From a virus (lineage: Duplodnaviria > Caudoviricetes), in IMG/VR virus record IMGVR_UViG_3300013936_000015, positions 64,001-128,000 of that record: a DNA stretch of 64,000 bases; one strand, given 5' to 3'. This document shows, piece by piece, positions 3,001 to 57,281 of this stretch. The notes under the pieces are model-generated. The model worked only from the letters and a program-made list of their open reading frames with translations. It was not told the DNA's origin and searched no databases. A program made the position numbers and the translations under genes. How positions within the stretch are numbered: position 1 is the stretch's first letter; each line of letters begins with the position of its first letter.

Positions 3001-3479
3001 TTAGTTTTTCCTCTTTTTCCATCTTTGCCTACTGGATCTAAATCTTTCCAAATCTACAGATCATAGTTAGGATTTCCGCCATATTGGTAATTATTCCAAC
3101 CATTTGATAAAGTAGTATTATCAAATCTATTTATCTTAGTATTCATCTTCATCTGGCCAATCATCCAATCTCCAATCTTTGATGCATATCCAATATTAAC
3201 AGCTCCAGCACCATTTCTGGTTGTATCTAATCCAGAGCCATCAACATTGTTTATATCTATTGTTCCATTATTAATTTGTGAGATGTTACCATCCTATATG
3301 TTCTTGATTAATGCGTCCTTCTATGCTACAATCTCCTCCTATTGCCCTTTCGACCACATATCCTTATAAGTATTAAAGAAAGCATCATATTGACTATTTA
3401 ATTGGGAGATATAATCATTTCTATTAACATCAACACCATTGATTTTAATAGTAGGCTGCATATTTGTATTTTCTGCCAT
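1..3479 (-). CDS. Large virion cargo/ejection-type protein, 3'-truncated by the window (>1150 aa, TAG=Gln)
   Basis: ATG at 3479. Track fragments 2718-2960, 2175-2357, 1371-1862 and 669-911 are in one frame, separated by TAG. Contains a hydrophobic Gly/Ala-rich segment, low-complexity STGGNT repeats and internal QKNGGILKAQSG and KYEYGGVLKFAAGG motifs. Confidence 0.75.
763..843. repeat. 18-bp coding tandem repeat (STGGNT units)
   Basis: gtatttccaccagtagat repeated in tandem, plus degenerate copies. Confidence 0.85.
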
Positions 3480-3486
3480 ATTATAT

Positions 3487-3527
3487 AAAAAAATAAAGGG
3501 AAACATACTCAGTATGCTCCCCTTTTA
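3487..3527 (-). terminator. Intrinsic terminator-like hairpin
   Basis: Stem aagggaaacatac/gtatgctcccctt followed by a T-run on the minus strand, just after the 3531-3857 gene. Confidence 0.6.
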
Positions 3528-3530
3528 TTA

Positions 3531-3857
3531 TTACTTAATTCTATAAGAAAGTTTTCCACCTGCTCTGTATACTGGCTCGCCCTCATCAGCAGTGCCTTGT
3601 TCGGGAGCACCTTGAGCACTCTGAGCACCTTGCTGTGCCAACTGGATTAAAACTTGACAAACCTGCATAGCAGTCTCACAATCTCTATTCTGAATAGCTT
3701 GTGCAGCTGCTTCAATTAATTGTGCCATAGGATCTTGGCTCTCCCCCTGCTGAGGAGCACCCTGCTCTTGCTGTGCACCTTCTTGAGGAGCACCCTGAGG
3801 TGCTTGCTCTTGAGGAGCCGCACCACCCTGCTGAAATTTTCTAAAAACTAAATTCAT
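3531..3857 (-). CDS. Small Gln-rich putative virion cargo protein
   Basis: Intact TAG-free ORF that starts RKFQQGG and ends YRAGGKL. Confidence 0.8.
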   Translation of the reverse strand: MNLVFRKFQQGGAAPQEQAPQGAPQEGAQQEQGAPQQGESQDPMAQLIEAAAQAIQNRDCETAMQVCQVLIQLAQQGAQSAQGAPEQGTADEGEPVYRAGGKLSYRIK

Positions 3858-3954
3858 AAATATTTACTATTTTACGTTTAAAAAGAAATTATTAATACTA
3901 TTAATATATGGTTAGTATTGATAATATATTTGTTTAAAAAATTATTAATAGATA

Positions 3955-23693: not shown

Positions 23694-24488
23694 TCAAATT
23701 TTTTTCACATAATTACCAATCATATTGGCAAGTTTTGTATAAAGTGGTTGACCAGAATCTCGGATACATAAATACAAAATTCCATCTTCCTTATAATATT
23801 TATCCTTATAAATTACAAGATTACCATCTGAAGGATAATCTATCGGATCATCTTTTGTACCCGACTGTTGCTCTACAATCTAAACATATAAAGAAGCAGT
23901 CTAAATAGAAGGAGGATATACCTCCTAAACAAGATGATCTTGAACAACCTTATACAATTTGTCGTCATATTGAATCTTTGTATCTTTCTTTATATTCTGA
24001 CCAATAAAAGATTCCCAAGTAGGATATAAAGACTTAACTTCAAGTGCTTGGCTATCTGTTAAAGACATAGTATTAATTGTCATAGACACAACCTTAAATA
24101 CATCTTTCTACCTAGGAGTCTATTGCACAATAGGCAAAGATTCCTCAATATTAAAATCCTTCTTTACATTGGATTTAATCTCTTTTAACAAATTAAGATA
24201 GGACTCATAATCTTCTGTCATATCTCCTCCCATCTAATAAAAATTATATGAGTTAATAAAGTCAAATTCTTCATCCTAACTCACATACTTTCTTAATACT
24301 CCTAAAACACATTTCTTATATGTAGGCTCTCCCTCTATTTTAACTGCAATAAAAGAATAACAAGAACCCGGAGTATCCTTCATTTCTTCCTATTTAATAT
24401 CATAATTATAAAACCAATATCCATTTTCTAAATCTATAAGAGTATTGGGTTTGATATTAGACTAATCTCTATTAGGATTTTCTACCAT
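23694..24488 (-). CDS. Protein with a C-terminal carbohydrate-binding (CBM5/12-like) region (264 aa, TAG=Gln)
   Basis: LYPTWESFIG..IQYDDKLYKVVQDH..PPS..ASLY..GTKDDPIDYP..YYKEDGILYLCIRDS. Overlaps the RT stop. Confidence 0.65.
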
Positions 24489-25662
24489 AAATAATACAAT
24501 TTAAAGGATATTTACAAATTAATAGCTTATTAAAATTCTATACATTTCTACTCTTAATAGTATAGGAATTTTTCTTATATATATAATGGACTTCGTAATA
24601 TTTTGTTCGGGGAACAACTTCAATGATTCTAATATTACCTTTCTTAAAGTAGGCTGTTCCTCCATTCCAATTAGAAAAATGCAAACCAGTTAATTTCTCT
24701 ATCTTAAATAATAAATTCTTGGAATCACAATATTTCAACCACCCAAAATAAGAAGATAATTTTGAAGAAAGATCATCAAATGACAATTTATGCTGCTTAT
24801 ATTTATTTATAATTTTGAAGATTTTTTGTTTAATAGATTTCCTGATTTTTGTGTAATTATGATAAAACACATAACCTACAAAATCTATTCCCCTAGATTC
24901 TACAGGAAAAATTTGATAATTCCCCTTCACTTCCAGATTTAAAATATATTTCAAATAAATCTTGATTAAAATTAAATACTTTCTTAACTCTTCCTTATTA
25001 TCAGATAAAATAATAATATCATCGGCATATCTAAAATAATACCTAATTTTCACTTCCTCTTTTAACCAATGATCAAAATAACTTAAATATAAATTAGCAA
25101 AAAATTGAGAAAGATAATTGCCTATGGGAATACCATCAGTAGAATCAATTATCTCATCCAATAAATTTAATAACAGTTTGTCTTTTATCTTCTTCCTAAT
25201 TATTTGTTTAAGTATATCATGGTTAATAGAAGGATAGAACTTTCTTATGTCTAATTTTAGACAATAAGTAGTCCCGATTTTATCTTTTAATGCCTTCTTT
25301 ACATCCTATACACATTTATGAATACCCCTACCCTTTATACAAGAATATGTATTTTTTATAAAAATTTTATTCCATATATGTTCTAAGGTTAAAACAATAT
25401 CCCAATGTAAAATTCTATCTGGATAATAAGGTAATCTATAAATCTCCCGCTCTTTAGGCTCATAAATCTTATAAACATCATACTTAGATGTTTTATATGT
25501 TCCATTTATTAGTGACTTCTATAATTTCAGATAGTTCTCCTCTTTATGCCTGTCATGTTTAATAATTCCTATATTATTCTTTCCACGCCGAGCATTCGTA
25601 TCTGCAAGCTCTATCCTCTTTAAATCACAAATAAAAGGATATAAATTTCCAATACGTTTCAT
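24472..25662 (-). CDS. DGR reverse transcriptase (396 aa, TAG=Gln)
   Basis: MKRIGNLY.., YEPKEREIYRLPYYPDRI, YSCIKGRGIH, LKLDIRKFYPSI, GIPIGNYLSQ, YFRYADD, GIDFVGY. Adjacent TR/VR pair. Confidence 0.95.
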
Positions 25663-25779
25663 TATGTTATTTTGGAATTTTCAATAAAAATACTTACTAA
25701 TACCATTTTTTTATAAAAACTACGATATCTTTTGCCAAGAGGCAAGGTTATTATATTAAAGATATTGTTTAAACATAAT

Positions 25780-25882
25780 AAGAGCGAAACCCGATATTCG
25801 ACTAGGAGACTAGAAGAGAATTGTTAGAGTTGAAATGAAACAACCTAGCATTAGACCAATTGTTAACGTTACTGCCTACTAG
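25780..25882 (-). repeat. DGR template repeat (TR)
   Basis: 103-nt ungapped match to VR. All 18 mismatches fall at TR adenines on the minus strand. Rich in AAC/AAT codons. Confidence 0.95.
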
Positions 25883-25922
25883 TATATTAAGTTTCAATAT
25901 AATAACCTGTATTTAATATAAC

Positions 25923-28214
25923 TTATTTAAATATAGAAGAGCGAAACCCGAGAAGCGACCAGGAGACCAGAAGAGAATGGTCAGAGCTGAAATGAAACAA
26001 CCCAGCATCAGACCAAGAGTCAACGCCACCGCCCACCAGGCAGCTTCTAAGGTCCTCATCTGCTGTACCTACATAGTGATAATCACACAAACCTGTAGTA
26101 GTAGAGCCTTTAATGTCTATTGGGAAAATATTGCCCTCTGATCCTAAATCCATTTGAGTTGAATAGCCTGCCTAATGCAGTTCTTTTCCCACCTAATCCA
26201 TTGTTTTCATTGAGGTTCTATCATGCTCACTTCCGTCCGATTTACAGTACTTGTCAGGATCTCTCGTAGCATATACTGTATTATAAGAGCCTCCAGATTC
26301 ATTTGAAGCGTCAATAACAATTCCATCAAGATTAAGACTAACATCTCCAAATAAATTTTCATACCCTCTCCATTTAAATGGATATTCAGTATCTGCCGGA
26401 TAACTTAATTCTGTTGTTGTAGAACTGTCACAAAATACCGTGATATTACAACTTGTCTTGTCTGGATCAACTATATTATAACCTCCAGCATCTTTTATAT
26501 ATGTAAATCCCTCAATCTATATTCTAAACCCATTAAGAGTTATTGTTTGAGGAGTTTCTTGATTATCTTTTGTGAAAGTAATCTTATTAGTACTTGACTC
26601 CTATATTATCACTTTCTAATCATCTACCAGACCAGTAACATGAAAAGTAGCTTCTCCACTTCCATAAATAGCAGAATAACCCCAATAAGCATTTGGTCCA
26701 TATACATTCGTACAAGTAACTGACTGCCCATCAGAAGAAACTTTCCAACTACTAGAATAATCTAGTAATATCTTACTAGTAACAGAGGGCTGGTGATAAT
26801 ATCGTCCAATAGCATCTCTATTACCAAAATATATTTTCTATGTACTAACAGTAAATGCTGGAAGTTCTAATTTTTTAATATTAGTAGTACTGCCTAAATC
26901 ATCTAAATATCCATTAGGACATACAGAATAATAATTATTATATGATAATGGGTTATTTACAGTAGTAACTCCCATTCCCATTCCTCCTTGATGCAGTCCA
27001 CCTGCTGTAAGAGTAGATTTAAAACCAGCTTGAGAATTAAAAGTGGCATATTCAATCACCCATAACCAAACAATATCTTTATAGTTATAATAAGACATTA
27101 TTTCCATACCAGCATTTCTGCAATATGTTCTCATTATATTTCTATTGATAGCCGTTCTACATTTACCTAAGTCTGAACGGTATGGATCTGTTTTTAGATA
27201 TTTGTCATAATCAGTTCTATTGCCACCTCCTCTACAATAGGTACTTGTATTATTAATACTGACTGCTGAATTTACTGGTAAGGTACTTAAATACCCCATA
27301 TTTTTAGGTACAGTGTTTAATACTGTAATTCTGTATGCACTATCATATCTTGATGGTACTAAAGTCCATTCATTACCGAGATTCTCCTAAGCAATCTTTA
27401 CTTGATTATATGTATTATCTCCATCTTCCACATTAGTTTCACTTAGAATATAATACTGTGGTATATCTAACATTACTTGTCCATCATATCCTGATAAATC
27501 GGATCCTAAATAACACGTGAATGGAGTGTTAAAGACACCAGAAGTTTCCAGACTGGCTTCTACATTCATTCTAATAAATTTATCTGAAGTAGTAGCTGAA
27601 TCTAGAATAACTACCTCTGTAATCTTAAATGGTTGTTTAGTATCAAAATTATCTTTAATTTGAATCCAGTGATCAACTAATCGATTTTCAGCTTGTTCTA
27701 AATTAGAGATGTCTGAAAAGTTCTTTATATTGACGCTAACCTGTCCAGAAGCTGTTCCATTACTATATGTAATCTCTCCAGTCCCTTTAATCTCTGTGGC
27801 ATTTTTTCTGAATCTCCAATCTTTAGGATCTAAGTCATACATTTTTGTCTTAGAAGATTTAGTAGACTGGACAATACAAGCCTTTATCTAAGATTGGATA
27901 GGTAATTCTCTATGATAGTCAAAATTACCGATCCTTTCAAGAGTAGGATCTTTATATGTAGTAGACCATCTTACTCCATACCATTTATATACTACTGGTG
28001 GAGAATATGTTTTCCATATTGGCTTAGTTCCATCTGATTGTAAAAACAACCCATTACCACCTTCATAACCAGAAGGGACAAATAAAAAGTCTTTCCCCTG
28101 TGTTTTTATTTCTTCATATCCATTTTCTGAAACAAAAGCAATATCGGTGTCTTTAACATCTGTTTTAGTATTTAATCCAGATTTTGTTTTTGCATTTATA
28201 AGTCTTATAGCCAT
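25923..28214 (-). CDS. DGR target: fiber/receptor-binding protein with a C-terminal C-type-lectin-like fold (763 aa, TAG=Gln)
   Basis: Four track fragments in one frame. WYGVRW, GQVMLDIP, WLWVIEYATFNSQ, WRGMENLFG motifs and a C-terminal VR ending GFR. Confidence 0.85.
25937..26039 (-). repeat. DGR variable repeat (VR)
   Basis: 3' end of the target gene, encoding LVGGGVDSWSDAGLFHFSSDHSLLVSWSLLGFRS. Confidence 0.95.
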
Positions 28215-57017: not shown

Positions 57018-57209
57018 TAATCTAATTTCTCGTAAATATTCATTATAGTACTACCATTAGGTAATCTAAAATGATGCATGATAATAGAATCGCCAGATCC
57101 TATTTCTTAGATTTAGAAATATCTAAAATCTGTATATCATCTATAGATAGGCTCATCATACATAACCCATCTAAATAGATACCTCATAAACCTTATCTTT
57201 AAATCATAG

Positions 57210-57281
57210 TTAGGGCACCAGGATTTGAACCCAGACTAAGTGGGTTAGAGCCACCTGTGCTGACCATTACACCATACCCCA
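57210..57281 (-). tRNA. Amber-suppressor tRNA, anticodon CUA, Gln-type body
   Basis: TGGGGTATGGTGTAATGGTCAGCACAGGTGGCT-CTA-ACCCACTTAGTCTGGGTTCAAATCCTGGTGCCCTAA folds as a cloverleaf. U1-A72 pair as in tRNA-Gln. CCA not encoded. Confidence 0.92.

Follow-up and report, generated by a model that had tools for sequence, protein, structure and literature searches.

We found that an in-frame TAG in the template (TR) of a phage DGR is probably a disguised Trp codon. Natural TR-VR pairs from related elements suggest that it is a near-fixed template for Trp, because an adenine that is followed by G in the TR is read as G in the VR in approximately 95% of cases. The comparison also supports the conclusion that recoding of TAG lifts a restriction on how the template may be spelled, without widening the protein repertoire at this codon. 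The element lies in a 64,000-nucleotide stretch of viral DNA (positions 64,001 to 128,000 of IMG/VR virus record IMGVR_UViG_3300013936_000015), and the window refers to this whole stretch.

A complete Avd-less DGR in the window

The minus strand of the window carries a complete Avd-less DGR, confirmed here, in the order target-VR, then TR, then reverse transcriptase (RT). The features of the locus, and the tRNA gene discussed below, are as follows.

25923..28214, minus strand: DGR target gene, 763 aa, tail-fibre or receptor-binding-like, 8 in-frame TAGs
25937..26039, minus strand: VR, coding for the last ~38 residues of the target protein
25959..25961, minus strand: VR codon TGG (Trp752 of 763 aa), templated by the TR TAG
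25893..25908, unstranded: partner arm of the TR-bracketing inverted repeat, pairs with 25745..25760
25780..25882, minus strand: TR, non-coding, between the target stop and the RT start, a 103-nt ungapped repeat
25802..25804, minus strand: TR in-frame TAG, with the adenine at 25803 followed by G in the sense direction
25745..25760, unstranded: inverted-repeat arm, 16 nt, 94% complementary to 25893..25908; the pair brackets the TR
24472..25662, minus strand: DGR reverse transcriptase, 396 aa, 3 in-frame TAGs, RVT_1 match with E=2e-20, IGNYLSQ as the GxxxSQ motif
57209..57281, minus strand: suppressor tRNA with anticodon CUA, which reads TAG

Three properties identify the locus as a DGR: a DGR-type RT, TR/VR differences at adenines only, and a VR at the 3' end of a coding target. 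The TR and VR form a gapless alignment with an offset of 157 nt. All 19 mismatches (19/19) are at adenines of the TR minus strand and none are elsewhere, and the homology stops directly past CGCTCTT. The VR ends 4 codons ahead of the target stop (25925-25923). On the minus strand, 54 nt separate the VR from the TR and 117 nt separate the TR from the RT. Target stop and RT start are 260 nt apart, and the DGR locus has no space for an avd gene. Hundreds of relatives of the RT adjoin TR/VR pairs. Differing VR alleles on one template (the window and two 76-aa fragments described below) are a sign of ongoing mutagenic retrohoming.

Homologues of the C-terminal domain of the target are found on many phage contigs of 100-200 kb. 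Pfam and PDB profile searches gave no meaningful match for the target domain. An AlphaFold2 model of the last 225 aa of the target, made from a 25-sequence alignment, had a mean pLDDT of 49, and values were below 50 across the VR; it was judged too poor to use. Pairing of the two inverted-repeat arms around the TR could hold the template RNA in a stem. Between the TR and the RT there is a second inverted-repeat pair (25722-25732 / 25758-25768).

The phage is TAG-recoded

TAG is recoded in this phage, probably as in genetic code 15. With translation table 11, open reading frames of 100 aa or more take up 46% of the window; the figure is 92% with TAG open and 53% with TGA open. There are 8 in-frame TAGs in the target, 3 in the RT, and 9 in the next gene. 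The tRNA(CUA) begins with UGGGGUA, ends with CCCUA, and has a U1:A72 pair; with this pair, the tRNA at 57209-57281 presumably resembles bacterial tRNA-Gln (compare E. coli tRNA-Gln).

In an alignment of 177 RTs, two of the columns at which recoded members have TAG are occupied by Gln in 145/145 and 143/145 of the standard-code members. Codon 48 of a small alignment (A1) is Gln in 90% or more of the sequences. The two invariant-Gln columns support the assignment of TAG to Gln for the RT clade, and for this phage we infer the same assignment from the tRNA(CUA) and those columns. The three TAGs of the window RT itself fall on variable columns of the 177-RT alignment. Column 648 of that alignment has TAG in 12 recoded RTs and Lys in 61/61 standard-code RTs, which may be a misfit to a simple TAG=Gln assignment or a C-terminal alignment error. 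Column 520 has TAG in one recoded RT and Trp in 144/145.

The source record is 136.5 kb and is estimated to be 76% complete. The DNA of the window RT is 66-72% identical to that of crAss-like phage RTs, and the nearest relatives of the RT and of the target are on contigs of 150-190 kb. On circumstantial grounds, the window would fit the description of zeta crAss-like phages (proposed Echekviridae; PMC12386605).

An in-frame TAG in the TR opposite a Trp codon in the VR

Positions 25802-25804 read CTA on the plus strand, that is, TAG on the minus strand. In the frame of the VR, the TR translates as L V G S N V N N W S N A R L F H F N S N N S L L V S * S N I G F R S, and the VR translates as L V G G G V D S W S D A G L F H F S S D H S L L V S W S L L G F R S. 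An asterisk in the TR marks the TAG at 25802-25804, which is exactly in register with Trp752. A previous sequence-only reading of this DNA had reported the TAG opposite TGG in the VR, and its strand, the gapless alignment and the frame of the target confirm that report. Two codons on the 3' side of the TAG are altered in the VR (AAT to CTT and ATC to CTC), and codons on the 5' side are altered too. The TAG is thus within the mutagenized and retrohomed stretch, because codons on both of its sides are changed. All six TR adenines that precede G in the window (6/6) read G in the VR.

The TAG might be an assembly or sequencing error at base 25803, with TGG as the true TR codon; it is, after all, one base in one assembly. 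We consider such an error highly improbable, because the homologous TR codon is also TAG in four independently assembled recoded phages: L039 (copies L197/L198), L218, L167 and L199. In addition, the other five TR adenines before G in the window show the same pattern of A in the TR and G in the VR. Scans of IMG/VR and metagenome contigs with exact IUPAC patterns for the 3' half of the TR and VR matched only the two copies in the window itself.

Template adenines before G are read as G

We surveyed related DGRs for the fate of template adenines. In total, 350 loci were retrieved by RT and by target C-terminal domain from IMG/VR, metagenome contigs and GTDB genomes. TR/VR pairs were defined with a custom script as ungapped repeats with mismatches at adenines of one copy. 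The VR frame was assigned for each locus, and loci were sorted into TAG-recoded and standard ones from their ORF coverage and the in-frame TAGs of the target. The survey yielded 345 unique TR-VR pairs. At 93% identity they form 131 TR clusters, of which 113 are standard and 18 are TAG-recoded. Locus L285 was left out; its three apparent in-frame TAA codons came from a wrong frame picked by the ORF heuristic.

We found that the outcome at a TR adenine differed with the next base.

Next base A (345 TR-VR pairs): A kept 28%, C 16%, G 26%, T 30%
Next base C (345 TR-VR pairs): A kept 45%, C 2%, G 43%, T 10%
Next base T (345 TR-VR pairs): A kept 49%, C 20%, G 14%, T 18%
Next base G (n=1726): A kept 4.9%, C 0.06%, G 94.7%, T 0.3%

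The figure of ~95% for adenine before G derives from fixed VR sequences, after selection. The same outcome was found for the trinucleotide TAG in any frame (n=489; G 95.5%, A 4.1%, T 0.4%, C 0). Adenine before G was read as G at 94.3% in standard loci, at 96.1% in recoded loci, and in 295/305 cases in the genome-derived subset; the median per TR cluster was 100%. A text search of the literature, which is weak evidence given its incomplete coverage, found no prior account of this rule.

Protein selection is not needed to explain the rule, because four-fold synonymous sites behave like the others. At four-fold synonymous adenines before G, the VR had G in 400/419 cases, and A was retained in 4.1%, vs 5.2% at other sites. 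A bias in repair or integration may also be compatible with this synonymous-site result.

These sites bear on an alternative explanation, in which mutagenesis at the TAG is random, Trp is restored by selection on the fibre, and the TAG is a mildly harmful G-to-A mutation drifting in the TR. Sister TRs that fix Trp as TGG suggest a functional preference for Trp, and mutations in a TR would be under second-order selection only. We nevertheless judge this explanation to be improbable. Synonymous adenines before G become G as often as non-synonymous ones do, and relatives carry Asp, Asn, Tyr or Gly at the site of the TAG. A structurally invariant Trp at this site was rejected as well, given those same four residues in that column.

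Synonymous adenines before the two pyrimidines were also counted. At four-fold synonymous third positions, adenine before T gave T in 44/48 VR cells and adenine before C gave G in 35/40; these cells were not dereplicated. Non-synonymous adenines before T or C had mixed outcomes, and a few TR families may dominate the synonymous counts.

TAG recurs at the homologous template codon and is mostly read as Trp

TAG is present at the homologous TR codon (alignment A2) in four other recoded lineages: L039 (copies L116/L197/L198), L218, L167 and L199. The codon is TGG in the recoded L035/L128/L131/L217, L202 and L274 and in the standard-code L245. In all remaining family members, recoded or not, it is AAT or AAC, an ordinary hypervariable codon (AAT in L036, L053, L072 and L132, for example). 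When the VR is removed, the target-domain tree requires at least 6 changes among TAG, TGG and AAT-type states. In the RT tree, L035 (TGG) and L039 (TAG) are sisters with 98% SH-aLRT support, and the window is placed elsewhere. TAG and TGG have thus interchanged repeatedly, as seen from the state changes and from the sisterhood of L035 and L039.

The VR codon opposite the homologous TAG is TGG in the window, L039, L218 and L167 and is GGG in L199. Two further VR alleles of the window's species (P0005 and P0006) are 76-aa C-terminal fragments that are 88% identical. They were found by a protein search with the last 76 aa of the target, the piece that a table-11 gene caller would report. Their differences from the window are confined to A-templated codons, on either flank of Trp752, and both alleles keep this Trp. 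They also fit G at adenines before G wherever the protein reveals it. Across the survey, VR alleles templated by an in-frame TAG were Trp in 10/11 cases and Gly in 1/11, with no Gln, Ser or Leu, a count in which P0005 and P0006 are presumed to have the TAG template of the window. The ten Trp alleles are from the window, P0005, P0006, L039, L218, L167, L028, L026, L009 and L016. None of the 11 alleles had TAG, TCG or TTG in the VR opposite the TAG. For the recoded phages alone, the alleles were Trp in 6/7 and Gly in 1/7.

Two of the TAG-bearing loci have further peculiarities. In L199 (TR codon 28), the GGG of the VR needs a T-to-G change without an adenine template. Trp is thus not obligatory at this position, because the VR of L199 has GGG. 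L167 has one RT (542-1678) with two TR-VR pairs (128-442 and 3310-3795), laid out as VR1-TR1 upstream of the RT and target2-VR2-TR2 downstream. Its TR2 holds the in-frame TAG, and most adenines are gone from the 3' third of TR2. The L167 RT, used as a single-protein query, matched only itself.

The sequence-only reading had proposed that the TAG is a diversifiable codon that gives Gln, Ser, Trp and Leu under code 15, an expanded repertoire. The TAG would then be kept in the TR as an adaptive gain from recoding, at a receptor-contact position. Some of our observations fit. Other relatives have a hypervariable AAT at the homologous codon and the site is thus on the variable face; TAG recurs there in 4-5 recoded lineages; and two contigs, L275 and L276, diversify TAA-G to TCG and TAG. 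Even so, we think it unlikely that the TAG is maintained for diversity. The recoded alleles templated by TAG are 6 Trp and 1 Gly of 7, adenine before G changed to C or T in ~0.4% of 1726 cells and was kept as A in 4.9%, and sister lineages hard-code Trp as TGG at the same site. The proposed four-residue repertoire at this codon is therefore contradicted both by the 94.7% G at adenines before G and by the 10 Trp and 1 Gly among the 11 alleles.

The contigs L275 and L276 appear to be one real example of the broader idea, a stop-like template codon that diversifies in a recoded phage. Both are TAG-recoded, and their identical TRs have an in-frame TAA followed by G where relatives have AAT (L275, TR 3764-3865 and VR 3594-3695; L276, TR 1387-1488 and VR 1217-1318). 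Opposite TAA-G, the VR of L275 has TCG (Ser) and that of L276 has an in-frame amber, TAG. The products fit T-N-G, which codes for Gln, Ser, Trp or Leu, because the last adenine obeys the rule for adenine before G and the middle adenine is free.

Standard-code phages avoid TAG in their templates

We compared how GG in the VR is spelled in the TR, restricting the count to dinucleotides at which the TR, too, has G in the second position. At sites outside Trp codons, the first G was spelled A in the TR at 49% of sites in standard clusters and at 71% in recoded clusters. Such spellings include AGY (Gly), CAG (Arg) and GTA-G (Val). Trp codons were templated as TAG in 2/52 cases in standard clusters and in 3/7 in recoded clusters (Fisher p=0.0096). 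The recoded sample is small (7 clusters, most at one homologous site); the direction is clear, but the p-values are generous. The standard-code value of 2/52 is far below background (p=3e-12) and below that of other second-position sites (p=2e-6). The recoded value of 3/7 did not differ from its own background of 71% (p=0.2).

In-frame TAG in the interior of the TR was found in 4/18 recoded and 1/113 standard TR clusters (Fisher p=0.0012). These Fisher tests count TR clusters at 93% identity as independent, without phylogenetic correction, and overstate their independence. The 3472 TR codons of the standard-code TRs include in-frame TAG once in the interior and once as an edge case. The two out-of-frame registers of these TRs have 84 TAGs, from which ~42 would be expected in frame without avoidance.

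Much of what the sequence-only reading had said about TAG in templates is borne out by these counts. It had called TAG in a TR unusual, with stops avoided, and one interior and one edge case per 3472 standard-code codons, vs ~42 expected, agree. It had also implied a cost of TAG under the standard code, and standard-code Trp codons are seldom templated in this way (2/52). The comparison of recoded with standard TRs that it had called for showed in-frame TAG to be commoner in recoded TRs; equal frequency in standard-code TRs is at odds with the two comparisons (4/18 vs 1/113 and 3/7 vs 2/52). Its claim that the DGR has co-adapted to recoding holds in one respect, as the presence of TAG is tied to recoding, but not in the other, as no diversity is added at this codon.

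Recoding is not required for an in-frame stop in a TR, because some loci that have one use the standard code. An in-frame TAG opposite TGG in the VR is found mid-TR in the standard-code L026/L028 and at the 5' edge of the TR in L009/L016. A third standard-code case, L284, has an in-frame TGA followed by G in the middle of the TR (3746-3850) and TGG in the VR (3476-3580). It looks like an opal analogue of the amber case and shows, at the level of sequence, that the spelling is possible without recoding.

In-frame TAA or TGA in the last 1-3 TR codons (L001/2, L041, L049/56, the L092 family and L321-325) was set aside and treated as a difference at the homology boundary. The VR codon is always identical there. 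Thirteen standard-code loci (L092, L094, L095, L101, L103, L108, L110, L112 and L321-L325) have TGA followed by T at the third-last TR codon, and the VR has TGC in every one. Two accounts are possible, a fixed difference at the boundary or one more context with a fixed outcome.

A model for the TAG as a disguised Trp codon

We suggest the following model. The adjacent RT would reverse-transcribe the TR RNA, and the cDNA would replace the VR at the 3' end of the tail-fibre-like gene. The outcome at a template adenine would be set strongly by its 3' base: mixed before A, C and T, and ~95% G with ~5% A before G. As judged from the comparison, the RT would nearly always insert C opposite an adenine with a 3' G. 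AG and GG in the TR would then be near-equivalent templates, and TRs may drift between them because both yield the same product. The TRs of these AT-rich phages write about half or more of VR GG as AG. At a Trp codon, this AG-for-GG spelling would create an in-frame TAG. Under the standard code, the ~5% of copies left unconverted would truncate the fibre, and the spelling is nearly absent. In TAG-recoded phages, unconverted copies would be read as Gln, avoidance would be relaxed, and TAG and TGG alternate among close relatives at the same site. The predicted products at Trp752 are ~95% Trp, 4-5% Gln, less than 1% Leu, and essentially no Ser.

One observation counts against the disguised-Trp model as it stands. 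Nonsense at ~5% seems to be avoided far more strongly than Ser-for-Gly at ~5%, and the model does not account for this.

A more tentative extension, to which we give about one chance in three, is that the TRs of this clade have two classes of adenine. Adenines before G would act as a silent G and the others would be randomized, and recoding would change which spellings are allowed, with Trp as TAG and a randomized TAA-G. If true, the two-class reading would imply co-evolution of a genetic-code change with a hypermutation system, and it would provide a predictive rule for reading or designing DGR templates.

If the disguised-Trp result holds, not every TR adenine is a site of diversity. Repertoire sizes calculated as 4^n for n adenines would be too large for this clade, since roughly a quarter to a third of the adenines (those before G) are effectively fixed. 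Programs that find DGRs and reject TRs with in-frame stops, or that rely on table-11 gene calling, would mis-score recoded DGRs. The contrast between 2/52 and 3/7 would be a rare measurable case in which a code change relaxes a constraint on a template that is not translated. The rule for adenine before G would also be useful in the design of synthetic DGR templates.

Comparison with known systems

Recoding has been discussed for gene calling and for late-gene regulation (PMC8008677, PMC12386605), and the papers searched do not describe how it affects the codons allowed in a DGR template. Both DGRs and stop-codon recoding are familiar features of gut phages. A text search of the literature, incomplete in its coverage, found no paper that links the two at template codons and, as weak evidence, no earlier in-frame stop codons in the TRs of recoded phages.

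The window DGR resembles those of crAss-like and other large gut phages (zeta crAss-like phages, PMC12386605; crAssphage LMMB, PMC7290462). It has the same order of target-VR, TR and RT. Also shared are adenine-only substitution, a C-terminal VR in a tail-fibre-like protein, a GxxxSQ RT, the lack of avd, and amber codons in the RT and target that need suppression. In contrast to those DGRs, the window TR has an in-frame TAG opposite Trp in the VR; text searches found no mention of in-frame stops in TRs in those two papers. With gut phages that read TAG as Gln (code 15; cited in PMC8008677 and PMC12386605), the window shares in-frame TAGs across structural genes and a phage tRNA(CUA).

The rule for adenine before G agrees in direction with findings for the BPP-1 enzyme (bRT-Avd). 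Errors of the BPP-1 RT depend above all on the 3' neighbor in the template; A-to-G changes, from misincorporation of C, are the most frequent, and G is misincorporated at 0.08% in the NAG context (PMC12875486; bioRxiv 10.1101/2025.08.18.670894). The preference for AAY was explained in that work as stop avoidance (PMC12875486; bioRxiv 10.1101/2025.08.18.670894). The two systems differ in extent: for BPP-1 in E. coli, ~31% of adenines are misincorporated on average, whereas the natural VRs of this clade show ~95% at adenines before G. They also differ in their requirements. BPP-1 depends on Avd, whereas the window DGR is without it.
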